This document shows positions 720-50,443 of a DNA stretch of 64,000 nucleotides, piece after piece. The notes below the pieces were generated by a model that ran no database searches, was not told where the DNA came from, and saw nothing but the letters and a program-made list of their open reading frames with translations. The stretch comes from Eledone cirrhosa (Eukaryota). The stretch lies in NCBI GenBank assembly GCA_964016885.1, contig OZ024754.1, forward strand, positions 23,622,001 through 23,686,000, read 5' to 3'. The stretch's first letter is position 1. Every line of letters begins with the position of its first letter. A program made the translations under genes and the position numbers.

Positions 720-2340
<1,621 letters not shown>

Positions 2341-5563: not shown

Positions 5564-6093
5564 ATATATATATATATATACATACACATACATACATGTG
5601 TGTGAGTAAACTGCAGAATATGGTCTTTGTTGTTGTAAGACAGTAGAGAGTGATATTTGACTGTTATTTCTACCAGGTCAAGTAACCAGGTAAGAGATTC
5701 CCTCGTTGATGCATAATAAATATTTCACTGAGTGATGCTGCTTGTTTTACCATGGGTTGGATACAATTGATGGAGTGAATTGATATAAGTGAAGGTCTTT
5801 CTGAAGGTATTAAATTATGTCAGGGACTTTTAACGTATAACACCGGTTTTATTTAAGAGCAGGGGAAACATTGTCAATGACACCACGTACCTGCTATCTT
5901 AATTATAACTTTAATTAATCTAATTACATCTTGTGTAGCAATTATCTCATGTTAAGGTGAAAGTTAATATTTTGTAGATAACATAGAGTGAGCTACATGT
6001 TCCAGGGTAGGTGTTCCATCACCTACATAATTAAATGTTTTATTTCATGAGAAACTACGCTACATCGTGAATTGGTTGTTCCACATTTTACAG

Positions 6094-6182
6094 GACAGTG
6101 AGAAATAGGTTTAAATCACCAACATATGAACAATTAGCTTTCCTGGTCTTTCTTGACTTTACACTTGGACTTGAAATATAAA
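6094..6182 (+). other. Putative 89-nt non-coding 5' exon of the ZNF gene
   Basis: ttttacag|GACAG...AAA|gtacgt; same splice sites and same length at 14525-14613 (+) and 59620-59708 (-). Confidence 0.65.
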
Positions 6183-6360
6183 GTACGTATTATTTGTATT
6201 GTTAACACAGCAGATATTGTGTACTTTTCTATACTCAAGGTAAAAACAATACTCATTTATTGAGACAAAAACACACACACACACTCTCTCTCTCTTACAC
6301 TTTCTTATACCGACATCAGTCTTACACAGTTATATATCTTCAGAACTTCGAAGAATTACG

Positions 6361-7170
6361 ATGGAGGACGTTAAACACTTGGACATTTCTACCACACCTG
6401 TTTCTACCAATATAGATACGGTTACACAGATATACAGTGGTGAGAAACCTTTACCTAGTGAAACATGTACTGAACAAGGATCATTATATAGAAATATTCC
6501 TGAATATAGCTGTGAGATTTGTAGGAAAACTTTCTCATCAGAAGATGAATTATCTACACACAAACACATACATATTAAAGACAAACCCTATCATTGTGAA
6601 GTATGTGGGAAATCTTTTACTGAAACTTCTCATCTTCGTGAACACATACGAAGTCACACAGGAGAGAAACCTTTTCATTGTGAAATGTGTGGGAAATCTT
6701 TCAGTCTGAATTCCAATTTTCTTAGGCATTTACGTAATCACAGTGGGGAAAAACCATTTCACTGTGAAATATGTGGGAAATCTTTCGCTGAGAAAGCTAA
6801 TCTTGTTAGACATATACGTATTCACACTGGAGAGAAACCTTTTCACTGTGAAATATGTGGGAAATATTTTGCTGATAGTGCTGTTCTTATAGGTCACAGA
6901 AGAACACACACTGGAGAGAAACACTTCCATTGTGAAATATGTGGGAAAGCATTTGTAACAAGCAGCAAGTTAACTATACATAAAAGAACACACACTGGAG
7001 AGAAACCCTATCATTGTGAAATATGTGGAAAATCTTTTGTAACAAGCAATTATTTAACTATACATACAAGAACACACACTGGAGAGTGTCCCTATCACTG
7101 TGAAATATGTGGGAAATCTTTTATAAGAAATTGTTATTTAACTGTACATAAAAGAACACACACTGGTTAG
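6361..7170 (+). CDS. C2H2 zinc-finger protein, 8 tandem fingers (2 more in frame after the TAG)
   Basis: 269-aa ORF with CxxC-12x-HxxxH repeats and TGEKP linkers; candidate acceptor cttcag just upstream of the ATG. Confidence 0.9.
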   Translation: MEDVKHLDISTTPVSTNIDTVTQIYSGEKPLPSETCTEQGSLYRNIPEYSCEICRKTFSSEDELSTHKHIHIKDKPYHCEVCGKSFTETSHLREHIRSHTGEKPFHCEMCGKSFSLNSNFLRHLRNHSGEKPFHCEICGKSFAEKANLVRHIRIHTGEKPFHCEICGKYFADSAVLIGHRRTHTGEKHFHCEICGKAFVTSSKLTIHKRTHTGEKPYHCEICGKSFVTSNYLTIHTRTHTGECPYHCEICGKSFIRNCYLTVHKRTHTG

Positions 7171-12054: not shown

Positions 12055-12101
<47 letters not shown>

Positions 12102-12139
12102 ATTAAATAAATGGAAAACTATATTTATAAAACCATATC

Positions 12140-12205
12140 TATTTCATTATATATATTTCGGGGATATCATATTAACAATATGCTATGCCTTCATCAGACA
12201 AAATA
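12140..12205 (-). ncRNA. Minimal type I hammerhead ribozyme (inverted copy)
   Basis: Exact reverse complement of 13613-13678. Confidence 0.75.
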
Positions 12206-13612
12206 CAATATAAACAGTTTTATAGATAAATAGATTCGACATACCGTTATAACACCGACTTCATTTGAAGAGGTTTAAGCTGGCAGTGAAAAAATTTTAC
12301 ACAGAGAGAAAGAGAGAAAAAAGAAAGAAAGACAGAAAACGAAGAAAAGGAAGAAAAAGAAGAAATGCATGGAACAAAATAGAGAGATGGAAAAGCGAAG
12401 AACTTCATGTAAAGAAACAGAAAGAGATATATATATATAGAGAGAGAGGAAATAGAGATAGATACATATATATATAGAAAATTAGGTAGTGGGAGGTCAT
12501 TTTGAGTAAATGTATCAATGATACATTTATTTATTTATTTATTTATTTAGCTCAAGTATTAATGTAAGGGAGATATATAGAGAGAGAAAAAAAATATAGA
12601 GAGAGGAAAAAAAATTTAAAAATATCCAGATATATTCGAGGCGTAAAAACCCTATGTTTTAATGTATTAGTATTTATAAAACTTACACTATATTGTAAAT
12701 ATCAGTATTCCTGAATGAGACAAGTATCCATAGTGTGTGAAAATTAATTATCTTATGTTTAGTTTTAAAAAATTCATATGTTTATGTGACAGCTACAAAC
12801 ATCCATGCGAATCCAACTGATTCACTCTGCAAACTCTAAGTTCACGGAAAACATTCTCAATGTGGTATAAAAATTTGAGCATACATATATGTGTATTATT
12901 ATTCCTGTCATTACTCTACAAGATTATCTATCAAGCAGAAATAGAGAGCAGATTTCAATATACTAATAAAAATATATATCATAAACAAAAATAAAAAGAT
13001 AACAATAATAATAATAATAAGTAAAAATAATAAAATAGAAAACTAAAAAAATATAAAAAAATATTACGAAAGAATATTACATAATAAAAATATTACATAT
13101 TAAAAATATTACGTATTAAAAATTTACATATTAAAGATATTAAAAATAAAATAAAAAATAAAAAATATTATAGAATACTACAATAATAAAAAATAAAAAT
13201 AAAAATTAAAATTAAAATAAAATAAAATAAAAATTAAAATAAAATAAAATAAAAATTAAATTAAAATAAAATAAAAATTAAAATAAAATAAAATAAAATT
13301 AAAATAAAAAAAAATAAAAATTAAAAAATAAAATAAAATAAAAATAAAATAAAATAAAAATTAAAATAAAATTAAATAAAAATTAAATTAAAATAAAATA
13401 AAATAAAAATTAAAATAAAATAAAATAAAATAAAATAAAAATAAAAAATAAAAATAAAAATAAAAATTTCTTCGTTTTCTGTCTTTCTTTCTTTTTTCTC
13501 TCTTTCTTTCTCTCTGTGTAAAATTTTTTCACTGCCAGCTTAAACCTCTTCAAATGAAGTCGGTGTTATAACGGTATGTCGAATCTATTTATCTATAAAA
13601 CTGTTTATATTG

Positions 13613-13678
13613 TATTTTGTCTGATGAAGGCATAGCATATTGTTAATATGATATCCCCGAAATATATATAATGAAATA
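13613..13678 (+). ncRNA. Minimal type I hammerhead ribozyme
   Basis: Stem I TATTTTGT/ATGAAATA, CTGATGA, long imperfect stem II, GAAA, palindromic stem III TATATA, AUA cleavage triplet. Confidence 0.75.
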
Positions 13679-13839
13679 GATATGGTTTTATAAATATAGT
13701 TTTCCATTTATTTAATATTGTAAATATACTCCAAATATTTGTCGAGTGCTTTTATATCAGTTATAAATATTTACTAGTTGTAACCCAACAATTTTAAATA
13801 TAACTTTCCATATATATATATATATATATATACATACAT

Positions 13840-14644
13840 GTGTGTCTGTGTGACTAAACCGCAGAATATCGTCTTTGTTGTCGTAAGACAGTAGAGAATG
13901 ATATTTGGCTGCTATTTCTACCAGGTCAAGCAACTAGGCAAGAGTCTCTCTGCGGGTAATCAACTCTGTTCCTATGGTAGTAAGTAGGGAGATAGTCCTA
14001 GAGCCAAGGACACCGGAAGTCTCTACGGCCAAGGGCACGACCGCAAACCTGTCGAGGAGCGAAATGAGTAATTCCTTTACTTTAAAACTGTAGAGTGTGT
14101 TGGCTGCTATTTCTACCATGTTAAATAACCAGGTAAGAGACTCCCTCGTTGATACATAATAAATATTTCACTGAGTGATGCTGCTTGTTTTACTATAGGT
14201 TGGATACAATTGATGGAGTGAATTGATATAACTGAAGGTATTAAATTATGTCAGGGACTTTTAACGTATAACACCGGTTTTATTTAAGAGCTGGGGAAAC
14301 TTTGTCGACGACACCACGTACCTGCTATCTTAATTATAACTTTAATTAATTTAATTACATCTTGTGTAGCAATTATTTCATGTTAAGGTGAAAGTTAATA
14401 TTCTGTAGATAACATAGAGTGAGCTACATGTTTCAGGGTAGGTGTTCCATCACCTACATAATTAAATATTTTATTTCATGAGAAACTACGCTACATCGTG
14501 AATTGGTTGTTCCACATTTTACAGGACAGTGAGAAATAGGTTTAAATCATCAACATCTGAACAATTAGCTTTCCTGGTCTTTCTTGACTTTACATTTGGA
14601 CTTGAAATATAAAGTACGTATTATTTGTATTGTTAACACGGCAG
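13840..14644 (+). repeat. Paralogous copy of the ZNF upstream region (5600-6213), with a ~125-bp minus-strand CRE fragment at ~13937-14062
   Basis: Long near-identity with 5600-6213; the insert translates LLDRFAVVPLAVETSGVLGSRTISLLTTIGTELITRRE. Confidence 0.9.
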
Positions 14645-16387
14645 GGCACTACAACGCTGTCAGTCGTGAAAGCAGGCGAAGGTGACGTCATTCGTCATCG
14701 TTTATTTCCGTATTACTATCACGCGTAAATGGAGTTTTCACGCGTCTTTTATTTTTTTTATTAAAGCATATCGATGTAAGTGGAGTTACTTAAATGAAAA
14801 TATAGGTGGCCCTTAAAAGGGCCAAATTAGAAAACAAATTTAAGTTAATTAAAAAACAAATCATGGTTATAAAGCATATCGATGTAAGTGGAGTTAAATG
14901 AAAATATAGGTGGCTCTTAAAAGGGCCAAATTAGAAAACAAGTCATGGTTATCAAATAAATTTGATTTATTCATTTATATTTTCATAGTCATGAAATTTA
15001 AGTTTATAAAAAAATATATGGTTATCAAATTATTCACCAACCTTATTCAAAAGCATGGATACAGATGACGAATATGTTCTAAGGGCCAAATTAGAAAACA
15101 AATTTAAGTTAATTAATCAATGTAGAAAACAAGTCATAAATTTAAGTTTATAAAAAAATATATGGTTATCAAATTTTTTCCACCATTTATGAAGAAATGT
15201 TTAGAAACATTTTTTCACCAACCTTATTCAAAAGCATGGATACAGATGACAGATATGTTCTAATAACTTTTGGAAAATTTCACCTTTAAATTCATAACGC
15301 CACATGAATTCAATGAGATGGGTTTGAAGCAGATTTCTGGCTGTTCCGTTTTCCCTTTTATTCCTATTCTTTACATGTTTCCACAAGCATTCTATGTGAT
15401 TCGTTGTGGCAAATGTTACAGGATCAACAAAATTGATGGAATGGTTCACCGTCAAATGTTGATAGCCTAGCCTATCGATCGTATTATAGGAGCACCATAG
15501 ATCAGATATTATAGTTGTTCCTGGCAATATACGATCCTGTATAATAGTTAAAAGTGTCTCCGCTGTCCTGTCTTCTACTGCTACTAAAAAACATCTGGTA
15601 CCTCTTTCCAAAGCACCAAAAACCCACTGTGTTTTCACAGAATGGCCAAGATGGTATTTCCTTCTCACAAAGGCGCTTTTGTCAATCTCGACAATTCGGT
15701 TTGGCCCGCCAAGCTTAATGTTTTGTGCCATATAATACTCTGCACATACATCACGGCAAAATTTTCGCCAATCTGCTACGGCCACATTCGCGATACGACA
15801 TTCCTCTGAAATCTTCTTGGCTAAATCTTCTTTTGCCCCAAAATATAATATATCAACTATTTGTTCACATTTCAAATTACTATTTTCTAAAAATGTGCCT
15901 TTTCTAATAGACACCTGTTTTCTACATGACCATCTGACACATTTTGTTTCGCTACTTCCAACATACGTTGACCACATCAGAAGTCCTTGATTTTTCAACC
16001 AATTGATGGTTAATTCCATTAACACTTGGATATATTATAGAATTCATATTTTTCAACTTGCAAATGCGTGAAGATTAAAGTTTATTTATTTACATGTGGT
16101 GTTGGTGATGATTGGTGGGGATTGTCTCCATGGGCACTGTATCCATGCTTTGAATAAAGTTGGTGAAAATAATTTGTTTTCTAAACATTTCTTCATAAAT
16201 ATATAGGGTTGGTGAAAATAATTTGATAACCATAGTTTGGCTCTTTTAAGGGCCACCTATATTTTCATTTAAGTTAACTCCACTGTTGGTGAAAATGACT
16301 TGTTTTCTATATTGATAACCATGACTATGAAAATATGTGACGTCATTCGTCAACCTTCCCCTACTTTCACTTCTGACAGCTAATACC
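14645..16387 (-). mobile_element. Merlin-superfamily DNA transposon (IS1595/ISXO2-like)
   Basis: Imperfect TIRs gctgtcagtcgtgaaagcaggcgaagg and ccttcccctactttcacttctgacagc (23/27); transposase ORF; complex subterminal repeats; no TSD seen. Confidence 0.85.
15228..16025 (-). CDS. Merlin/ISXO2-like DDE transposase (true start uncertain)
   Basis: SIRKGTFLE, LGGPNRIVEID, RKY, WVFG, ILPGTTIISD, HLTVNHS..FVDP, TNHIE..W, LIEFMWR motifs. Confidence 0.9.
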   Translation of the reverse strand: MLMELTINWLKNQGLLMWSTYVGSSETKCVRWSCRKQVSIRKGTFLENSNLKCEQIVDILYFGAKEDLAKKISEECRIANVAVADWRKFCRDVCAEYYMAQNIKLGGPNRIVEIDKSAFVRRKYHLGHSVKTQWVFGALERGTRCFLVAVEDRTAETLLTIIQDRILPGTTIISDLWCSYNTIDRLGYQHLTVNHSINFVDPVTFATTNHIECLWKHVKNRNKRENGTARNLLQTHLIEFMWRYEFKGEIFQKLLEHICHLYPCF

Positions 16388-16411
16388 ATGAACTATATTA
16401 GTTCATGGTAT

Positions 16412-17480
<1,069 letters not shown>

Positions 17481-35591: not shown

Positions 35592-37990
35592 TATCATCAT
35601 CATCGTCATCTTCGTTTAACGTCCATCTTCCACGCTTGCATGGGTTTGGACGGGAATTTTCCTACTTGAGGCAAGATTGGTTGTCCTGCTTATATAGGAC
35701 TGTCTGGCGGGTTTTCTACGACTGGATGCCCTTCCTAATACCACCAACCACGTTTACAGTGTGGACTGGGAGGTTTTTACTGTGTTACCTACACGGCCAC
35801 ATTACAGCGTGGACTGTGTGTTTTTTTGTCGTGACACCTACACGACCTCATTTATTTCGGACTGGATGTTGTGGTACCAACATAACTTTACATTGAAGGG
35901 GGTAGTGGGACGGGAGAGGGCGGTATTTTTGTTAGAGGTGCCTACTGACTGTAGGTTTCGCTTTGTACTTAGGCAAGGCGGGTCTTCTGTGTTACTGTGT
36001 AGCGCCAAAGATCTCAGTCCAGTGACATTGTCTTGGAGAGGTGTAAGTGTGTGAGGTCGGAATTTATCAAGTCGTCCCAGGTTTTTCTGGGTCTGCCTAC
36101 TCTGTGGCTACCGTCTATTTTTATCGCCCTGCACTTTTTTTATACAGCTGTCGTCTTTCATCACGTGACCGTACCAACGTAGTCTTCTCTGAAGTAAACA
36201 ACATCTGATCCCTCTTATTCCTAATTTCGCCCTTAGTTCGTTTATGCTTTGCCGTTCACGTATATTATATTACACATCCAGCGGAGCATGCAAGCTTCAT
36301 TCCTCTCCAGTCTGCGTATATCCTCTGCACACAATGCCCAAGTCTCACTGCCATGTAACATTGCTGTTCGTATGCAGGCATCATACAGCCTGCCTTTCAT
36401 TTTTAGAGAGAACCCTTTAGCGGCCAATAGTGGTATAAGCTCTCTGAACTTTTTCCATCCCGTTCTGACTCTAGCTACTATACTTTCAGAGCACCCTCCC
36501 CCACTGCTGATTTGGTCACCCAGGTAACGGAAGGTGTCCACTATTTCTATAGAACCATCTGTGCAATGGAATGAGCTAGTATTCTGTGGGCACTTGCTGC
36601 TACTTATTGCACCTGAGCACCGGCCACATATAAAATCTATATTCTTAGTTAGCTTACCTGTGATCCCACTACATCTTTTATGCACCCATACTTACCCCTA
36701 TTTAGGGCCTCTCCTTTACCCTTGTAGCAGTTAATGATGATGCTGCTACGCCAGTCCTTCGGAACGACCCCATTCTGTATGACTTGGTTTACTATCCGGG
36801 TGACCATAGTGTGTCCCACCGTTCCAGATGATTTCAGCATTTCAGTAACTATTTCCGAAGGCCCAGCCGCCTTACCCGTCTTCATATCTTTGATTGCCTT
36901 ACTTATTATACTACCTTCAACTTGCACTGCTTGTGCCTCTATTGGATCAATGTGGGGGAGACTGTCTTTCTCCCATTTATTCTCCTCATTTAGTAGCCTT
37001 TCGTAGTGACACTTCCAAGCTACCTTCTTATCAGCGTCAGTGATAGCAAGTACACCATCATCATTAAGGACACACTTCTCCCCGACAATATCACGGTTTT
37101 CCTTGACACATTGCCTAGCAATCCTGAACACCTCACATTTTTGGTCCTCACATTGTAGAACATGCTTGAACTTTCTTTCCTCTGCTTCCCTTCTTGCGAA
37201 ATACACTTGTCTCCTAGCTTCCCTCCTGGCCACTTGATAGTCTTCTCTACTTCCCCCATCCCGCCATACTTTCCAAGCCTGCTTTTTGGCCTTGATTGAC
37301 TCCTCCACCTTATTGTTCCACCACCACGTTACTCTCCTCCTGCCTATAGGTCTGCTCCAGCCACAGACTTCATCTGCCGCCTTCTGCAGGTTAGCTTTCA
37401 GGAATTCCCACTATTCCTCTATATTGTACGACTCTAATTGCTCTTCCTTACTGTCAAAAGCATCAAGTAATATGCTTTTAAATTTATTACTGGCTGTGGG
37501 GTCCTTTAGCTTCCATATTTTTCTCCTGAGGATAATCCTCCTCTGTTGTCGAGTACGTCTTGTCCTGACTATGAGTCTATGTTTGGAGGTGCATTCTTCA
37601 TGGGGGAGGGATTTAGTGTTTACAACAAACACTCTATTACGTCTTCTGGTAAGGATATAATCTATTTGACTGGCGTGTTCCCCTGAGCTGTAGGTGATCA
37701 AGTGATTGTCTCGTTTATTGAAGTTAGTGTTACAGATAGTTAGGTTATTTGCGTCACAGAATTCCAGGATTCTGTAGCCTTCCTCATTTCTAGTATCAAA
37801 CCCATAGCCTCCATGGATTTCGTCGTAGCCGTCACAATGTTGTCCAACGTGAACATTTAGGTCGCCAGCAATAATTATGTAGTCACTGTCGGTTATTTGG
37901 GAGGCAGTGAGCATCAATGACTCATAGAAGCTGTCTTTTATAATGCCAGGCAGTCCGGATTGGGGTGCGTACGCAGATATTACTGTCATG
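35592..37990 (-). mobile_element. RTE LINE from the APE domain to the 3' tail, with the RT core deleted at ~36690
   Basis: VISAYAPQ, AGDLNVHVG, SQIDYIL (APE); GEALNRG joined directly to WVHKRCSG; (GAT)n tail. Confidence 0.92.
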
Positions 37991-38164
37991 TATATATATA
38001 TACATACTACTGTACGTCTGTATACATATATGTATGTATACATACTTATATTTAAGTATCAGCCATACTAAGAGTGAGAAATGAAATTTAATTTCATTCT
38101 TTTCCATTTATCGTTTTCAGTACGTCTGTATACATATATGTATGTACGTATACATACTTATATT

Positions 38165-38196
<32 letters not shown>

Positions 38197-38230
<34 letters not shown>

Positions 38231-40546
38231 TTTACGTCCGCTTTTCCCTGCTTTCAAGGGTGGGACGGGTCTTATTCAGCACAGTATCTCCACCGTGAGC
38301 TTCAGTGATCTGAGGTCTCTTCTCACCACCTCCGCCCATGTTTTTCTTGGTCTACCTCTACCACGTCTTCCTTCAACTGGTATTTCCTGGCAATTCTTCA
38401 CTCATCGGTCATCCTCCATTCGCATCACATGTCCATACCACCTCAGTCTCCTCTCTCGCATACTACATTCTATACCTCTCAGACACAGTTTCTCTCTCAA
38501 CATTTTCATGCTGGGTCGTTCACGCACATTGACATTGCACATCCAACGGAGCATGCTTACCTCATTTCTCTCCTGCCGTCGTATATCCTCTACAGTTGCT
38601 GCCCATGTCTCACTACCATGCAGCATCGTGCTCCTCACACAGTCATCATATAACCGGCCTTTCGTACGCAGTGAGAAACCCTTCTTTGTTAGAAGAGGAA
38701 GCAGCTCCCTAAACTTCTTCCAACCCGTCCTTATTCTAGATACTATGGCCTCGGAACACCCCCTCCCATGCTAATCTGATCACCTAGGTACCGGAAGCTA
38801 TCAACCACTTCTATAGCACTCGCCTGTATTTGAAAAATGTGTCCATCAATGCGACTTCTACTCTCTTATTTCCCTGTACAACTACTGCATATGTATTTCT
38901 CCCTACCGGTTAGTTTGCCTGCTATCCCACTACATCTCTTGTGTACCCAGGATCTGCTTTGTGTGCATTTTATAGAATTTATGCCAGTTCCTTTTCTGCA
39001 TATCGAACATCGCCATTTCCCTGGCGGAATCACAGTTTTGTCCTTATTTTCTCCTCATCAACACTTTTGTCTTAGCTAGGTTCACTCTCAGTCCTCTTGC
39101 TTCCAACTGCTGTTTCCATAGCCAGAATTTATTCTCTAGTTCCTCTACTGATTCTGCTATAAGAACCAGATTGTCAGCATAGAGAAGTTCCCATGGACAG
39201 CCAGTCTTAAACTCCTCTGTTATGGCTTGGAGGACTATAATGAACAAGAGCGGGCTGAGTACCGAACCTTGATGTACTCCTACATGTATCTGGAATTCCT
39301 CACTAAACTCCATTCCTACCCTGACTTTACTGACAGTACCTCTGTACAAAGTTTGCACTGTCCTCACAAGCCATTCTTCAACACCTAGTTTCCTTAGGGA
39401 CCACCAGGTGACAGATCGGGGTACCCTATCAAAGGCCTTCTCTAGGTCAACAAAGGCTAAGTATAGTGGCTTATTTTTCTCTAGGAACCTCTCTTGTAAT
39501 TGTCTCACCAAGAAGAGGGCATCTGTTGTACTCTTCCCAGACACAAAACCAAACTGCATCTCATCTAGTTTGACCCTATCTCTAATTAGTTGCGCTAATA
39601 TTCTCTCTGCCACTTTCATAACCTGATCCATCAGTTTTATACCCCTATAATTGCTCCTCTCCAGAGCATCCCCTTTACCTTTGTAGCAATTTATGAGAAT
39701 ACTGCTGCACCAGTCTTTGGGTATGATACCACCATATATAGCCTGATTGATGATGCGTGCAACCAGTTTAGCGCCTACTTCTTCTGATGCCTTCAGCATC
39801 TCAGCAACTATCCCCGATGGTCCAGCAGCCTTACAATTTTTCATTTCCTTAATCCCCTCTTGGACCCTATATCCGACAATCTCAATAGCTGGACCCTCTC
39901 TCGGATCTACTGAGGGTAATTTCTCTCTCTCCCATTCGTTCTCCACATTCATCAGTCCCTCATAATGACATTTCCAGGCCTCCTTTTTCTGATCATTCGT
40001 GACACTAAGTACACCTGCATCATTCCGGACACATTTATCTCCAACAACATCCTGATTTGCATTGACACACTGCCTTGCAGTGTGGAACACCGCACGCCTC
40101 TGATCTTCCCGTCGCAGAACATTGGCAAACCTCCATGCTAAGTACACCTGACGTCTAGCTTCTCTCTTAGCGGCTGTATATCCTTCTCTACTCCCACCCT
40201 TTTTCCAAGCCTTCCATGCTAGTCTTTTGTCTCTAATGGCCTTATCTACTGTGCTGTTCCACCACCAGGTCACTCTCTGTCTGGTTGGAGTTCTGCTCCA
40301 GCCACAAGTTTCATCAGTAGCATGCAATAGTGTGTCACGTAAGAAATTCCAGTTATCATCTATGTCATACGTCTCTAAATCGTCTTCTTTTTCGTCATAC
40401 ACATCTTGAAGGGGTTTCTTAGATTTGTATTTTAGTGAAAGGTCTTTTAGCTTCCATACCTTTCTTCTCCACACCTTCCTGTATGTCTGATTCCATCTCT
40501 TGCTTATTGAGATATCACTAACGACTAACCTATGCTGTGGAGTACA
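38197..40546 (-). mobile_element. 5'-truncated RTE LINE with a largely open RT ORF
   Basis: ORF 39044-40546 with QFGFVSGKSTTDA, FVDLEKAFDRVP, GVHQGSVLSPLLF, LLYADNL; frameshift at ~39045; (ATG)n tail. Confidence 0.93.
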
Positions 40547-42749
40547 TAATAGAATGGAGGCCCAGCAACTGGGAGAAAAATCTGCAAATGGCTTGCGTAA
40601 GCTCATGCAGCGCTCGCGTAATGGAGAGATAGCATGCTTTCCAACAGACAAGTCTGGCAGAATGTCGGTTGACAGCCTGCCAAACTACATCCAGGCAATG
40701 CAACCCCACATCACTAACACAAGAGAGGTAACACCACAGGAGCATGAGGATAGAGAAAAAACCCTCAATGCCCATATGGTGATGTGGACGAATATAATGC
40801 AGCCCAACAAAAGGACTGCCATCAACTTCCAGGCCTGGAACAATGACGTGCCGGCGTTGTATGGGCTTCGAAAAGACCATAAAACGGGCAGTGACCCTGT
40901 CGCGGGACCACCAACACGGCCAGTCTGTGGAGCTAACATTGCTAGTAACTACAGACTGTCCTACTTCCTCTCCCTGATCATACGCCCCATCATTGAAATG
41001 TCCCCAGATGTATGTGACAGCACGGAGGACCTCCTCAGCAGAATCGGCGTGAGTAACCGATCTAGGGACCTAACAAACTGCATAATAGGCATTATGGATG
41101 TTGTGTCCCTGTATCCATCTATTGACGTGGATTTTGCTGTGGAGAAATGCGTAGAAATGATCAGTGAGAGCAAGGTTGAGTTCCGTGGGATTGATACCAG
41201 TTAGCTGGGACTCCTACTTAAGCTTACCTATAGTAATAATTACCTAGACACATATGACCTTAGCAACCTGTGCCCTACAAGACCAGCAAGAGGCAGACCA
41301 CATGCAATTACCTCAATGGCCAAGAAAACCCACACAGATAGATGGAACGGGTGGACCAGAGCCATACGGACACCTGAAAACCACGATGAACTGAAGAAAA
41401 TGATTGCACATGCGGTAGGGGCCAGCATAAAACTAACCCTTAAGGAACATATGTTCAAATTTAATGGAAAAACATATGCCCAAGAGGAAGGAGCAGCCAT
41501 TGGTGTTAGCATTGCAGGCGACATAGCTAACTTATTCATGGTATGGTGGGACAGTAGACTTAAACTTAAACTTAAAGAACAATTAGAAGACCCCTTAACC
41601 CTGATAATGTACTCCCGCTACGTTGATGATATAAACATCGTAGTTAAGACACCCCCACTAGAGAACAGTCAGGAACTAGAGAAAAACACAATGGAAAGCA
41701 TCCAGCAAATAGCAAACTCCATCCACCAGAGCATTAGAGTTACTATAGACTACCCAAGTAAACACCCCAACCATCGATTACCTGTACTAGACACAGAGCT
41801 CTGGTTAGATACCATTAACAACAAAAAACAAATCCTCCATTCCCATTATGCCAAACCCATGACTTCCAAACATCTGATCCACCGAAACTCGGCCGTTTCG
41901 GACCATACCAAAATCAACATACTGATTGCGGATTTGGTACGAGTGATGAGAAATGTGTCCCGCATGTGCAACCCCGAAGAACTAGAGAGACACATACAAC
42001 ACTTCATCCACCGTATGCAGTTCTCTGGCTACAATCAGAGAGATAAAATCAGAGTGTATAAAGGAGCCAGAACCAAATGGGAAAAAATGGTAAATAATGA
42101 CATAAATAGGACCTGCCCCTTGTATAGGAGCAAATTTTGGAATAGAATAGAAAGAACTAGGAACAAGGCTAATAGAATAAACTCATGGTATGATAGCAAT
42201 AAATACCAGAGTGTAATATTCATCGATACAACCCCTAGAGGGGAATTAGCTTACAAATTTAGAAGGGCCCTAAATAAACATAAACTCAATATTAAGATAG
42301 TAGAAAGACCAGGTACCTCCGTAAAAACACTTATTAGCAAGACATACCCTTTTCAAAGACCCTCATGTATAGATAAGAAATGTATAACCTGTAAAATAAG
42401 CCCCCATATTAACTGTAAAACTAGAAATGTAGTGTATAGCATAAGATGTACTGAAGGACAATGTAGAGACAAAAATATAGTGTACATAGGTGAGACAGCT
42501 CGTAGTGTAGGGGAACGGATAAATGAACACTGGCGAGACCTTCAAGATAGTAAAGAATCAGCTGTACTCTACCAACATGCTAAAATAGAACACAAGGGTA
42601 AATTAGAGAACATAGAAATAAAAATAGAATCTACACACAGAAAAGACGCAATGTTTAGACAAATTACAGAGGCAATAAACATAAAAGAATTACAACCAAA
42701 ATTAAATAGAAAATATGAGTGGAACAGCAACATCACAACTTACAATTAA
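40547..42749 (+). pseudogene. PLE RT plus GIY-YIG endonuclease ORF broken only by one in-frame TAG (41202-41204)
   Basis: ORFs 40500-41204 and 41316-42749 are in the same frame and the 37 codons between them are open. Confidence 0.88.
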
Positions 42750-42950
42750 GGACAAAATGAAAACACACACACACATAGAACAAACAACCAACCAGTAACA
42801 TGTAAATAAACAAATAAATAAATGAACATAAACACACACAGACACCCGGATGTGGCGCATGCGCAGACTGAGCACACAACACACACACAGAAACAAAATG
42901 GCGTAGGACAGAACAAAGGAGAGGCACAGAAACAAAGAAAGGAATCCCTA

Positions 42951-42993
42951 GTCACTGAAGAGGTCACAGAGTGTGTGACGAAAGAACTATGAC
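42951..42993 (+). ncRNA. Minimal hammerhead ribozyme in the PLE pLTR
   Basis: GTCA CTGAAGA G GTCACA gagtg TGTGAC GAAA G aa C TA TGAC. Confidence 0.75.
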
Positions 42994-43207
42994 AATATAT
43001 AAACAACTATCTGGTTGTGGAACCAATCAACCAACCAGAAATTTATAAATTTATAAATTTATTATAAATTTATTATAATAATAAATTGAAGTGAAAGCAA
43101 CTGGTGCGTGTGTTTCTTATTGGCAACATGACCCTCCCAAAGTATAACAATATCGGTTTCAACACACGATTTCAGATAAAGAATCTTGCTAAACAAATTC
43201 AGAAACG

Positions 43208-43305
<98 letters not shown>

Positions 43306-43532
43306 GAAAATAATTTATGCTTTGATTCGTGGCAATGAACGGAAAAAAGTGAAAATAATACGTCGTTATGTGGACCGTTGACCACAATTACATGTAAAGA
43401 CAAAATCACGTTTATGGTATAGTAGATTAATATACTATTTAGGAAACCGAATGATTCTCGGCTTCGGAGTTCACAATAATGTAAATAAATTAGTTGAACG
43501 AAAATGACAGAGGTTATTGAAATCATAAAAGT

Positions 43533-43724
43533 AATAATTGTTTCTACTTTAGGCACAAGGCCAGCAAATACCCAGTACATTACTGGTACTTTATTTTATC
43601 AACCCCGTAAGGATGAAAGGCAAAGTTAACCTCGGCGGCATTTGAACTCAGACTGTAAAGGGACGTAACTATGCTAGAAAGTATGGCGTCCAACCCTCTA
43701 CCGATACTGCCAATTCACCGCCCT
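43533..43724 (-). mobile_element. Full-length tRNA-derived SINE
   Basis: A box tggcagtatcgg, B box gagttcaaatgcc, family core and tail. Confidence 0.9.
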
Positions 43725-43856
43725 TAAATATATACATTTTAGAATGTTAGTATCTGTATATATATTATTAAAAATAGCAATAATTGCAGGTGCATGTTGT
43801 GACATGGTTTTACTTCACAGAAGTCAAATAAAGTAATAGAAATAATGTTTACCACA

Positions 43857-44926
43857 TGTTGATGGTCAGTTGGTCGCAACTCCCAGACTGGAGCGTGTAG
43901 AGTAAGAGAGAGAGAAGACAGGAGTCATCTCTTCATAAAACAGGATTCATCTCTAGGGAGTGAAAGCAGGAATCGTCTCTTGGTACGGTTCAAGTGGTTC
44001 TTTCGCTGCCGGCGTAGGAAGTGAGAGAGAGTGCCTTAAGTTCTCAAATATATAGTCCCCAGGGGGACGCAACTCCATTTAGTACATGGATCTGCCACTG
44101 GGAGTCGCAACCGTCACAAAGGGACGCAACTCCTATATGTCCTGAGTTCCAGCCGTAAGGGGTTGCTATAGTACTCTCCTCCAGACGATAGGCAAAAAAA
44201 TCCCGAAGGAAATTGTAGTGAACCCACAAGCATGGGCTCCCAGCACAGGCATAAAATATTAACGAAAAGGTACATGTATAAATCAGGCATGAAATAGTAA
44301 CGAAAAGGTACATGTATACATAGTAATACAATAAAGAGAAAAACAAAAAAGGCTCCAGTGGCAAGTTCACATAAAAACAATTTGGCAGAGTTTTTTGGGC
44401 CAGTGGACTCTTCGTGGTCTTGTATGTAGGTGAAGTTGGGGAAGAAGGAGCAGGTGTATGCACAAGAGAGAAAGATTTGGGTATTTGTGGCTCGGGTGTA
44501 TGAGCGTCATTGTATGCCCTTATTAGTCTATCCACCGAAATTGTCTCTCTGTACCCCTTAATGTCTACTGTGAAATGTTTGTCAGTATGTGCTAACACAC
44601 GGTAGGGTCCAGAGTACGGCTGTGTGAGGGGTGGAGTAACGGCATCATTTCTGACGAATACATGTGTCCACGAGGAAATATCCCTCGGGACTGCAGCTTT
44701 AGTAGTTTGTTTCCTAGTATTCATGGGCGGTAAGTCCTGAAAACAGGAGCGCAAACGAGATACGTAGGAAACAGAGTCCTGAAAAGCAAGATCAACAGAG
44801 GCAAGCATTTGCCCAGGCAATGCTAGAGGAACACCATACAGTAATTCGGCCGGGGAGAACCCAAGGTCCTCCTTTATTGATGACCGAATTCCTAATAACA
44901 CAATAGGAAGGAACTCGCTCCAACGT
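43857..44926 (-). mobile_element. Gypsy (CsRn1-like) remnant: integrase C-terminus, PPT and 3' LTR (~43857-44170)
   Basis: LPIVLLGIRSSIKEDL..SPAELLYG, THVFVRND..PLTQPYSGPY..ISVDRL; purine tract ggaggagag before the LTR. Confidence 0.8.
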
Positions 44927-47900
44927 GCATATGCGAAAACACATACCATGCATGAATATACATGCACGTACACATAAACACGAGCACACGGACGTAAACC
45001 GGCGCGACACATATACCCGCGCACGTACGAACGTATACACCAAATACACATATAAATATATGTGTGTGTATATATATAATTATATATACACGCATAAATG
45101 CATATAGAACGCACACTCACACATACCTACAAACGTACATATGCCAAAACCCTATGTACACATATACACACCATACATACGTGCAAACACACATACACAC
45201 TCATACATACACATATATACACATATACATACATACTAGAGGATTATATATCATTGTGTGACGATATGCAAAACATGTTATAGCGTTCTGATACTATTTA
45301 TTCCTAATAGTGCTTTTCATCTCTTGCAGATGTCAATCATTTATTGATACAAATAAAGTGGATGTATTATGAAAAGAGTTCGTGCTCATTTATGATGGAC
45401 ATCATCAATTTATACTTTGCAGAGAAGTTGTTCTAAGACCAAAGTTTATTTATATAGCTGAAATTTAAGACTTCGTTAAGACTTCGTTTCGTATAATTTA
45501 ATGTGAAAGATGCCTACAGTGAAGTGCCCTATCCCACACTGTGATTTTGAGAGAGAAGACCTGTAGTGATCGCTGCACTGCTGACTACACACTCAACAGT
45601 CCACACTACAACACCCAGCATCTCTGCCAAAGTCGAACGGGTCAAGCGGCCTAGCATCTCCTCCGCAGGTCTGGCCCTACTTCATCTCAAGATGGACGGA
45701 TTACGTCGAGGCAACCAAAGTCGCAGGTAAAGACTTCATTGTACAACTCCTTGAGTGCTGTGACGAGACACTACGTAGAGACTTAACAAGAACCGCTGGT
45801 GGCACACTGACAGACAAAACCCAAGCTGATGTCCTCAAGGCCATTCGAGTCCTTGCTGTCCGAGAGGAAAATACCATGGTTGCTTGCGTCACCCTTCACA
45901 GCATGACACAAGACCCTGACGAGACTGTCCGCTCATTTGGTGCTAGACTTAGGGGACAAGCAGGTGTCTGCAAATTTGTCACAGCATGTCCGGGCTGCCA
46001 TCAGGAAGTGAACTACACTGAGGCAATCCTTCGTGACGTACTCACTCATGGACTTAATGACTCTGAATCCGGCTTGACCTCCTCAGAGATAAAAACCAGG
46101 ATATGAGCCTCGAGGAAGTATTTAAATATGTTGAAGCTAAGGAGGCGGGTAAGAGATCAGTGTGACGCTTACTTGATTCCTAGGGTGCCCAGGCTATCAG
46201 CAGTAGCTACCGTCGTAACAAGAAGATCCCACCAGACCACCCCAAAGGATCAGACTTCCAGAAAGAGACCTGCATCTATTGCGGTAAGAGAGGACATGGC
46301 ACACGAGCACCACCAAGGGTCCGAGATAAGGGGTGTACTGCGTACGGTCACACATGCTACTACTGTTCCAGACAAAACCATTTTGAGTCAGTTTGTCGCA
46401 GCAAGGACAGATCCAAGCGGGAAGTGTCCCCAAGACCTCTAGAGAACACGAGGGTGCCATTTTTGATTCCCTATGCGCAGCAATTCATTTAGTATACAAG
46501 CGAGATCACAAGTCCATAACCTGGGCCCACCACATACACGATCAACTATCAGATACATGGACAAGGCAGTCATCTCAACCTCAACCCTTTATCCAACTGA
46601 CAATGAAGGTCCTACATGAAGATTACCATCAACTCGGCTTTGGACACCTCCTTAAATCCAAATCTAAGACAAGCCCACTCTTTGCCATGGCTGATACAGG
46701 CTGCCAGAGCTGTCTTGCCGGGGTGAAGGTCTTGCACAAGCTTGGACTCAAGACCTCTGACCTCATCCCAGTAACACCGAGGATGCTGAAAACAATAAAG
46801 GCATCCCCATCCTTGGAGCCGTCTTTGTTCGCCTTTCAGGTCAAGACTCCACTGGTGAACTGATCGAAACTCGCCAACTTGTATACATCACAGACAACTC
46901 AGACAAGTTCTTCTTCAGACAAGTTTGCCGACTGGTACAGGTTCGATTACACCCAGTTGGACATCTTGGGATGATCACAGATAACTTTGCAACTATCGGC
47001 GAGGTCAGTGGTAGTGTGAATGCAGCTGCATCCTCAGGTGACAACCAAACACATCAATTACAGGACCAAGACAAAGTGGAATGCGAATGCCCAAGACGAA
47101 CACTGCCACCACCCCTGCCAATCAAATTACCCTACCCTGCAAGAGAGGAAAATCGCGAGGAATTTGAGCGCTACCTTCTTGATCGGTACAAATCAAGCAT
47201 GTTCAATACCTGCGTACACCAACCCCTTCCCCTTATGGAGAGCCCCCTATGAAACTGATGGTGGATCCCAACGCCACACCTATAGCTCATCACACTCCAA
47301 TACCCGTGCCGCTCCACTGGCGAGAGGCAGTCAAGGCCGGCCTCGACCAAGATGTCCAACTGGGTGTAATCGAACCTGTACCAGTCGGCAAACTTGTCAC
47401 TTGGTGCCATAGGATGGTTGTCTGCCCAAAGAAAAATGGTAAACCCCGCCGCACCGTGAATTTCCAGGCTCTCAACGCCCATGCAATAAGGTAAACCCAC
47501 CACACACAATCTCCATTCCACGAAGCATGCTCGGTACCATCAGACAAGAAGAAAACTGTATTCGATGCCTGGAACGGCTACCACAGGTACCAATCCGTGA
47601 TGAAAGGAATCACTTAACCACATTCATCACGCCATGGGGAAGATACCGCTACCTGACTTCCCCCCAAGGCTACATTGCGTCAGGTGATGGATACACAAGG
47701 GGATTCGATGAGATCATCTCTGACGTACAAAACAAGACTAAATGCGTCGACGACACCTTGCTGTGGTTTGACAACATTGAAGATAGCTTCTTCCGTGCCT
47801 GTGAATGGCCAGACCTCTGTGGCAGAAACGGAATAACCTTAAACCCAGAGAAATTTGTCTTTGCCAAGGGCACAGTCGAATTTGCAGGCTTTGAGATCAC

Positions 47901-50016
47901 ATGCAACAGCGTCAGACCGTGCGAAAAATACCTCCAAGCCATCATTGACTTCCCCACGCCAACCAACATCTCCAACATGCGCTCTTGGTTTGGTCTCATC
48001 AATCAAGTCTCCTACCCCTTCAGCATGGCCGACAGGATGCAACCATTCCGCAAGCTACTGAAACCAGGAACACCATTCCAATGGAATGACCAGCTGGACA
48101 AACTCGTTGAAGAATCTAAGAGTGTGATTGTCAGTGATATAGAAGAGGGTGTACGCAAATTTGACACCAGAAAACCTACATGTCTCGCCACTGATTGGTC
48201 GAAAGACGGCATTGGATTCTGGCTGTTCCAGAAACACTGCACATGCCCAAAGACAGTCCCAATTATCTGTCGTGAAGGATGGAAGGTTACACTGGTCGGA
48301 AGTCGCTTCACCCAAGCGGCAGAATCACGCTACGCACCAATTGAAGGCGAGGCTCTCGCTGTCGCTGACACACTGGACAAAGCGAGGTATCTCATTCTGG
48401 GCTGCACCAACCTCACCCTAGCGGTAGACCACAAACCACTACTCAAGATATTCAGTGATCAATCCCTGGAAAGGATTTCTAATACTCGTCTTCGCAACTT
48501 GAAGGAAAAGACCTGTAGTGATCGCTGCACTGCTGACTACACACTCAACAGTCCACACTATAACACCCAGCTATAGCTTCAAGATGATTCATATTCCCGG
48601 GGCAAGACACTGAGCTGCTGATGCTGTATCTCGACACCCATGTGACCCTGGAGACAAGATGATTCCAGAGGATTCAGCAGCCATCAATACCTCCAGCCAA
48701 CCATCTATTCAGAAACTCGTACTCGCCTCCATAAGACATGGTGACCAACCAGATAACCCAATCGAAGATTCTACCTTCCTCTCAGCCGTGTCATCCATCA
48801 ACTCACTCCAATCAATCACTTGGGACAAGGTTCAAGAAGCCACCAACAGCGATGAAAACATGACTAAACTGGTGGATATGATAGAAACAGGGATGCCAGA
48901 GGACTGCCTTAGCCCGCCATTCGTGAATATCATCAATTCCGAGAGCACCTACACTCAGTGGACGGCGTGGCTCTCTACAAAGACCGCATTGTCATCCCAC
49001 CATCACTCCGACACAACGTTCTAACAGCACTCCACTCCGCCCACCAAGGCATATCTTCTATGATGTCAAGGGCCGAATCGTCTGACTTCTGGTCTGGAAT
49101 TACAACAGCAATCACAGAGCTCAGGAATACATCTGCCCACTGCAATCTCAAGCATGTGCTCCACCTACCCCGCCAGTATACCCTTCCAGTGCATTTGCGC
49201 TGACTACTTCCACTACAAAGGGGTGAACTATCTGGTCATTGTTAACAGATACTCCAACTGGCCGATCGTAGAGAGATCTCGGGAAGGTGCCAAAGGCCTA
49301 ATTGACAGTCTACGCCGTACATTTGTCACTTTTGGAATTCCAGACGAACTGTCCTCAGATGGTGGCACTGAGTTTACAGCCTCAGCAGCCAAGGATTTCT
49401 TGAAAAACTGGGGTGTTCATCATCGACTCTCTTCAGTCGCCTTCCCCCACAGCAACTGTCGGGCAGAAGTCGGTGTTAAAACTGTGAAACGTCTTATTAC
49501 AGACAACACGGGACCCAACGGCGAGTTAGACACGGACTCACTGCAACGTGCCATGCTGCAATACAGAAACACCCCAGACAGAGACACCAAGTTATCCCCT
49601 GCAATGTGTGTCTTTGGTAGACCCATTAAGGATTTCATTCCAATCCTTCCCGGCCGCTACAAGCCTCATGACACCTGGCTGGACACACTTGCCTTGAGAG
49701 AAGCTGCCCTCAGAAACAGGCACATGAAGATTGCAGAACGCCTTTTTGAACAGACCAAGCGATTGCCACCCCTTGTCATTGGAGATCTCGTGCGAATACA
49801 AAATCAAACAGGCCCTCAACCGTTAAAATGGGACAAAACAGGCTGTGTGATTGAAGTTCGTCAGTTTGATCAGTATATCATACGCGTAGATAGATCAGGC
49901 AGAGTGGCCCTTCGAAACCGGAAATTTCTAAGAAAGTACACCCCTGTTCATCCACCGAGGGCACAGATCACCTTATCAGAAGACTTACCCCATCGATCCC
50001 AACAAAGACAACAAGG

Positions 50017-50443
50017 TGTAGTGAACAAAATTAAATGTATTTTCCTTTGTGATTAAATGTATTTTCCTTTGGCGGAAGAATGGTGTCACAGAGGTAAATT
50101 GGCTGAAGTGGAGCCAATCAAGGCCCTCAGCGGATCGAGACAAGTTGCTGGACTACTTGAACCAGAGACACAGTTGGCTGACAGGGCAGAGACAGAGTTC
50201 ACTGAACGACCTGGTAGCATCAAGACTTCCGACATTTGATATGCCACATTCTTTCACATCTCCACTGGAATATGCAGCCAAGACGATGTGAAGACTTGCT
50301 CAACCTTCTCTTGTTATTTCGATTCCATATTTGTACAACAAATAAAAGGGAATTTTTGTTATAATGGATTCTGTCGTTTTCGTCATTGCCTTCTGAATCG
50401 ATAACTATATTAATATCTCCAGCGATACTTAATCAACGTTATA
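50017..50443 (+). mobile_element. Solo LTR nested in the Gypsy element
   Basis: AAGG|TGTAGTG...CGTTATA|AAGG 4-bp TSD; AATAAA at ~50342. Confidence 0.75.

Follow-up and report, generated by a model that had tools for sequence, protein, structure and literature searches.

Several lineages of Merlin DNA transposons probably end their transposase mRNAs in the manner of replication-dependent histone mRNAs, as judged from the sequence that follows their genes. A histone-type stem-loop lies behind the transposases of a number of Merlin relatives, and three copies of it are present in a decayed Merlin element in the window, by which we mean the whole 64-kb stretch of Eledone cirrhosa DNA analysed here (Table 1). 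Both the RNA signal and the transposon family are known; their combination is one that we did not find described.

The three hairpin copies that a first-pass annotation had reported in the window element are all present where it placed them. When they were compared with the Rfam histone stem-loop model, one of the three (stem-loop 1) reached the gathering score of 34 bits, and it is the sole gathering-level match to Rfam in the window. A degenerate histone pattern matched three times in the window against 0.01 expected, and none of 100 shuffles reached three, the three hairpins being copies of one motif and thus not independent events. Stem-loop 1 folds with a z-score of −2.9, and its 19-mer is identical to the human H2AFX element (Table 1 of PMC2413145). 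In all three copies the 3′ flank reads ACCTA, which is of the ACC(C/U)A type and is given for human HIST1H2BB in the same paper. The 6-bp stem, the 4-nt loop, a G-C at pair 2 and a U at loop position 3 are likewise found in the window hairpins. Two reservations that accompanied the original observation proved justified: the 5′ flank in the window is TAATTT or TAGTTT rather than A-rich, and no purine-rich box lies behind the window hairpins. They sit 300 and 404 nt past the true transposase stop and 81–140 nt past copies of the transposase tail, further than the 25–60 nt that usually separate stop and stem-loop in histones (bioRxiv 10.64898/2026.10.14.759114), and an AATAAA is found 48 nt downstream of the outer hairpin.

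Table 1. Features of the window element and of two related two-gene elements (window positions unless a locus is named)
Feature	Position	Strand	Remarks
Decayed Merlin (IS1595-type) DNA transposon	14645..16397	−	left end firm, right end approximate
Left terminal repeat	14645..14697	+	starts GGCACTAC; imperfect inverted match to 16348-16380
Histone-type stem-loop 1	14805..14823	−	GGCCCT-TTTA-AGGGCC-ACC, perfect 6-bp stem; Rfam Histone3 34.0 bits
Histone-type stem-loop 2	14909..14927	−	one C.A mismatch; Rfam Histone3 23.7 bits
Tandem duplicate of transposase last codons (LEHIRHLYPCF, stop)	15047..15082	−	tblastn 9/10 residues
Truncated 5′ half of a further stem-loop	15080..15087	−	140 nt past true transposase stop, severed by duplication junction
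Merlin transposase gene, broken	15228..16047	−	ATG at 16047, frameshift after first 13 codons
Candidate compact promoter	16075..16120	−	CCAAT box, then TAAATAAATAAA; predicted from sequence
Inverted duplicate of transposase tail and 3′ UTR	16137..16284	+	forms long mosaic right arm
Histone-type stem-loop 3	16239..16257	+	one U.G pair; faces out of the element; Rfam Histone3 28.4 bits
Second gene of L049	L049:1341-2174	−	divergent from transposase
Second gene of L061	L061:1451-2308	−	divergent from transposase

The element is recognizable as a Merlin by its transposase. The open reading frame at 15228-16034 (−) matches Pfam DDE_Tnp_IS1595 (E 1.8e-17) and keeps D118, D178 and E215, with the adjoining conserved E119 altered; its best protein matches come from Octopus bimaculoides and O. 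sinensis (66–85% identity). In addition to the frameshift the gene has suffered further in-frame losses in its N-terminal part, and the window copy cannot make transposase. Merlin elements encode an IS1595/IS1016-related transposase of the DDE_Tnp_IS1595 type, have terminal inverted repeats of 24–462 bp that start with GG and produce an 8- or 9-bp target duplication, and the O. bimaculoides genome is rich in them (PMC8101967, which cites Feschotte 2004). The window element resembles the superfamily in its DDE_Tnp_IS1595 domain, its GG-starting left end and its mosaic subterminal repeats, and differs from it in its broken gene and in showing no target site duplication. The paralogous flank is not resumed on the right, so that the target site was probably deleted. 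Position 14645 is fixed as the left end by that flank (5636-6213), which matches through 14644 and then diverges, and by 435 reads with loose letters before 14645. Inverted comparison of 14656-14687 with 16380-16348 gave 85% identity, and the right tip is unrecognizable. A 33-nt near-perfect palindrome, possibly a repair scar, occupies the junction of the element with a zinc-finger array (16381-16413).

Internal duplications account for the arrangement of the hairpins. On the left, 15030-15082 is 94% identical to 15211-15263 and 15081-15116 is identical to 14817-14852; stem-loop 2 lies 119 nt past the stop of the tandem tail duplicate, and stem-loop 1 is one more tandem copy. In the right arm, 16137-16234 matches 15245-15161 at 81% and 16233-16284 matches 14829-14779 at 94%, which places stem-loop 3 approximately 81–85 nt past the inverted tail copy. 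The window hairpins thus travel with the transposase's own duplicated tail, and the window copy is a non-autonomous relic whose tail cassette has been duplicated in both tandem and inverted form. The earlier description of a transposon with hairpins at both ends is right in that both arms contain them; the arrangement is best read as a by-product of inverted duplication.

Four runs supplied reads and contigs, which were aligned to the window at 80% likeness, so any genomic copy may be their source. At 16242 the Watson–Crick base was present in 34/34 and 136/136 raw reads, and at 14915 the pairing base was present in 30/30 and 25/28, which indicates that other copies mostly have a perfect stem. 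At 16254 one contig reads T in place of C, which leaves a G.U pair. Read depth over the hairpin greatly exceeded that over the transposase gene; this contrast suggests many gene-less derivatives of the window element and is not a measure of their number. Read ends stacked at 14828 and 16236 were considered as RNA ends and rejected, as their source is a RAD-seq DNA library. Many thousands of raw reads join the subterminal modules 16275-16296 and 16369-16394, some of them in a head-to-tail unit of approximately 54 bases, which suggests that the element's ends gave rise to a high-copy repeat.

For a comparison with relatives we used an alignment of 60 transposases as query and collected 93 loci, namely the best 80 of 452 confirmed metagenome-contig loci and all 13 genome-contig loci. 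Scanning these with Rfam Histone3 returned 13 matches: nine in seven metagenome loci (E up to 0.1) and four in four genome loci (all E up to 0.052). Ten of the 13 are on the sense strand 18–147 nt behind the transposase (L001, L017, L034, L049, L057, L061, L081, L086, L088 and L092), with the distance for L092 taken from the end of homology because its open frame runs through the hairpin. The sense strand up to 200 nt behind the transposase, a target set after inspection, makes up 2.8% of the sequence, and the placement of 10/13 matches inside it has a binomial p of 8.5e-14. When L049 and L057 were counted once and second genes were left out, nine of ten matches still fell within this target. 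The hairpin is 18–56 nt from the stop in seven of the ten transposases. Four of the 13 matches reached the gathering score.

Of the Merlin loci, 79 have 110 nt or more behind the stop, and 69 of these gave no Histone3 match; the hosts of some hairpin-less loci may lack the histone pathway. One locus (L090) has a degenerate hairpin 18 nt behind its stop that neither the Rfam model nor a model built from 12 hairpins scored. The latter model added no new Merlin locus among the 93; its additions were limited to two weak matches and an extra copy in L081. L053 carries a canonical hairpin at 1092-1107 (+), 1.1 kb upstream of its Merlin transposase, and no gene was found before it. Neither the transposase nor the second gene described below had relatives in viral contigs, and four pattern matches there, mostly within open frames, were set aside as chance. 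L081, L088 and L092, and the assemblies G001, G002 and G004, include stretches assigned to bacterial bins that contain eukaryote-type genes, microsatellites or a histone cluster, and these stretches look like host contamination.

Alignment of 12 Merlin signals revealed a stem maintained by compensatory change. All 72 stem cells pair, and four of the six stem pairs change on both sides. The covariation score was not reached by any of 500 shuffles, and slid controls were lower; covariation is partly circular here, as the rows were picked by a model that rewards pairing, a circularity from which the positional test is free. All 12 signals have G-C at pair 2 and U at loop position 3, and both features are named as SLBP determinants (bioRxiv 10.64898/2026.10.14.759114). 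In most relatives the 5′ flank ends in AAC or ACC. The purine motif AAAAG or AAGAG, picked after inspection, begins 10–12 nt behind the stem in seven of 11 relatives (shuffle mean 0.16, 0/20,000), the location of the histone downstream element. The box of L092 is degenerate.

Polyadenylation signals and promoter words did not set hairpin-bearing genes apart. AATAAA was not depleted behind them (3/9 versus 16/65, p 0.69), and L049, L057 and L061 have one within 100 nt of the stop. Upstream of the transposase in the same three loci, a shared promoter region contains repeated ATTGG and GATCC words. Such words are typical of invertebrate histone promoters. Histone-like promoter words showed no difference between hairpin-bearing and other loci for CCAAT (4/7 versus 18/46) or TATA-like motifs (4/7 versus 22/46). 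GATCC was commoner with the hairpin (5/7 versus 8/46, p 0.007), a comparison we left unused, it being post hoc, with three motifs tried and two rows belonging to one family.

L049 and L061 are whole elements that depart from the Merlin superfamily in having a second gene head-to-head with the transposase. The products of the second genes are approximately 280 residues long and 38% identical to each other, with a Cys/His-rich, zinc-knuckle-like start, a coiled coil and a weak CCDC106 match near the end. They have 145 relatives, the named ones being from stony corals, and an atlas search with the second gene gave low scores only. An identical 16-mer follows each of the four genes of the two elements after 21–27 nt, with the second-gene hairpins 25 and 27 nt past the stop. 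In both elements the top stem pair is C-G, compared with U-A in the listed human histone elements (PMC7807067). The hairpins of L061 are 340–480 nt inside its 54-nt terminal repeats, and L088 has a single hairpin, on the 3′ side only, within 64-nt perfect terminal repeats. Hairpin position in L049, L061 and L088 therefore follows stop codons rather than element ends, which argues against a terminal-repeat palindrome.

We also searched in the opposite direction, applying RF00032 to five whole assemblies (G001–G005) with up to 150 candidates scored per assembly. The at least 12 matches comprised five host histone genes (H1, H2A, H2B, H3 and H4, all in G004), four Merlin transposases and three others that follow other or no clear open reading frames. 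One of the Merlins (L101), whose hairpin is 71 nt past its stop, came to light only in this search; the other three were known beforehand. The H1 hairpin of G004 scored 32.7 bits, under the gathering score, showing that true elements can fall below the cut-off. The hairpin 16-mer of the G004 Merlin equals that of the H3 gene of the same assembly. Against a profile made from the five host histone genes, the downstream stretch of this Merlin ranked within the top 0.05% of window positions, higher than any other Merlin signal that was scored, although it has a degenerate purine box. On the same profile the downstream stretch of the window lay in the top 2.9% of window positions and was not significant. 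Histone genes were found in none of the other four assemblies (G001, G002, G003 and G005), so the host matching concerns G004 only. Two non-histone frames of the histone-bearing assembly, L098:90-514 (−) and L109:416-680 (+), have no Pfam match and are followed after approximately 20 nt by a host-type hairpin with its downstream box; L100:1455-1545 (−) contains a canonical hairpin that no clear gene precedes.

After 39 of the 93 loci had been dropped (14 for their short 3′ flanks, 23 as near-duplicates and two for short proteins), a quick tree was made from 55 rows, and the hairpin bearers were scattered in it. The hairpin label changes seven times, at least four of the changes being forced by well-supported branches, and a single-clade origin of hairpin-bearing transposases was rejected (AU p 0.0008). 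This pattern is compatible with repeated gain and also with an ancient trait that was lost many times. The sister row of the window, L001, is its nearest relative with DNA and carries the hairpin.

The pathway we propose would begin with transcription of the histone-type stem-loop in the 3′ UTR of the Merlin transposase. Host SLBP would bind the hairpin, and the U7 snRNP would cut the mRNA approximately five bases past the stem. The resulting tail-less transposase message would be produced and translated chiefly during S phase, or else kept in oocytes for later use. A cut-and-paste element raises its copy number if it moves while DNA is being replicated, or in the germ line, so such timing would be favoured; that Merlin benefits from it is something we infer. 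Borrowing of the histone 3′-end signal, suggested earlier for the window element, is backed at the level of the family by position, compensatory stems, the purine box and likeness to the host, but the case is weaker for the window copy owing to its frameshift, the 300 and 404 nt distances, its non-canonical flank and downstream stretch, and AATAAA. On balance we lean towards the fuller reading that several lineages of animal Merlins, independently or from an old ancestor, build histone-like genes whose SLBP-bound, tail-less mRNAs would time transposition to S phase and the oocyte. With the same slight leaning, we would describe this gene build as intronless, sometimes in divergent pairs, and with a host-matched stem-loop and U7 site for each gene.

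Use of SLBP without U7 cleavage, the protein binding the hairpin of a polyadenylated mRNA for translation or storage, appears unlikely overall and is most plausible for the octopus family. The window family retains a perfect stem and ACC in the reads and has no purine box, and AATAAA occurs near the window's outer hairpin as well as in L049, L057 and L061. Dual 3′ ends are known for H2A.X (PMC7807067), which shares with the window both the 16-mer and a poly(A) signal downstream of the hairpin, but H2A.X is one of the host's histone variants and its downstream element is proven, whereas the window sequence is a mobile element. Binding alone would have no need of the fixed-spacing purine box seen in 7/11 relatives, and the 5′ flank in the window is not A-rich. 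Flanks of that kind are expected to weaken SLBP binding. We consider it distinctly unlikely that Merlins repeatedly captured histone gene ends near histone clusters and kept them as neutral passengers. Dispersal of the bearers over more than one clade (AU p 0.0008; seven label changes) and one signal resembling its own host's histones, as a recent capture would give, are consistent with this possibility. Yet the inspected flanks contained no histone coding remnant between stop and hairpin, hairpin position tracks the stop codons of both genes, and the four 16-mers of L049 and L061 are identical while their second-gene proteins are only 38% identical.

The palindrome could also be a DNA-level subterminal repeat or transposase-binding site with a chance likeness to histone elements. 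The window hairpin does occur in each arm of a long inverted repeat built of short modules, the depth over it is far above that over the gene, and internal repeats are frequent in Merlins (PMC8101967). Such a role is nevertheless very improbable given that the L088 hairpin is 3′ only and the L061 hairpins are hundreds of bases inside the terminal repeats, that the polarity of loop and flank agrees with the coding strand in 12/12 aligned signals, and that shuffled sequence yields a match to the relaxed pattern approximately once per Mb (three in 2.9 Mb). We give the least credence to outward-facing hairpins acting as read-through terminators or feeding tail-less RNA into piRNA production, an idea that draws on the outward orientation of both window arms and on planarian stem cells, where tail-less histone transcripts feed piRNAs (PMC10954484). 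In the intact two-gene elements the hairpins stand at a histone-like distance from their own stops, which points to a message end.

Compared with the metazoan histone mRNA 3′ end (RF00032, ACC(C/U)A and a downstream element, served by SLBP and U7), Merlin shares the stem, the loop and ACC, and the relatives also have an A-rich flank, a hairpin close to the stop and the purine box. In contrast to histone genes, the Merlin hairpin follows a transposase, and the Merlin signals are known here as sequence. Histone3 matches have been reported as enriched in plant class II elements (PMC11933835), and six were reported in polinton-like virus and virophage genomes (PMC12220804); the available text of these two papers contains no placement behind a transposase stop, no covariation test and no proposal that the pathway is used. 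The word ‘histone’ occurs zero times in the main text of the Merlin survey PMC8101967, as does ‘transpos’ in the available text of a preprint on histone 3′-end evolution (bioRxiv 10.64898/2026.10.14.759114). A search of largely open-access literature found no description of histone-type ends on Merlin. Close to Merlin hits in PMC8101967 (supplement file 3, records LD354680, LD356481 and LD373974) there is a repeated flank in which a canonical hairpin and a AAAAAGAG box stand approximately 20 nt behind a possible stop.

Replication-dependent histone mRNAs have been described as the only non-polyadenylated mRNAs (PMC12305476). A tail-less transposase message, if real, would break this histone-only rule and make Merlin a parasite on a pathway thought to be reserved for histones. 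It would also supply a concrete mechanism by which cut-and-paste activity could be tied to the replication of DNA or to the germ line, settings in which copies can rise. Oligo-dT RNA-seq would miss such messages, and element activity may accordingly be underestimated. A signal matched to the U7 of each host could limit horizontal transfer, and transposon debris may account for many of the orphan Histone3 matches seen in invertebrate genomes.

Further repeats lie elsewhere in the window. At 12090-13728 a foldback-like element has 247-nt arms, 98% complementary, around an AAAAT-rich tract. Two C2H2 zinc-finger arrays with an 84-nt period (6244-7170 and 16402-17480, the second broken by stops) lie behind the paralogous upstream segments 5636-6213 and 14083-14644. 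Retroelement remnants lie at 36649-50056, where the minus strand matches endonuclease and reverse transcriptase and the plus strand matches reverse transcriptase, RNase H and integrase.
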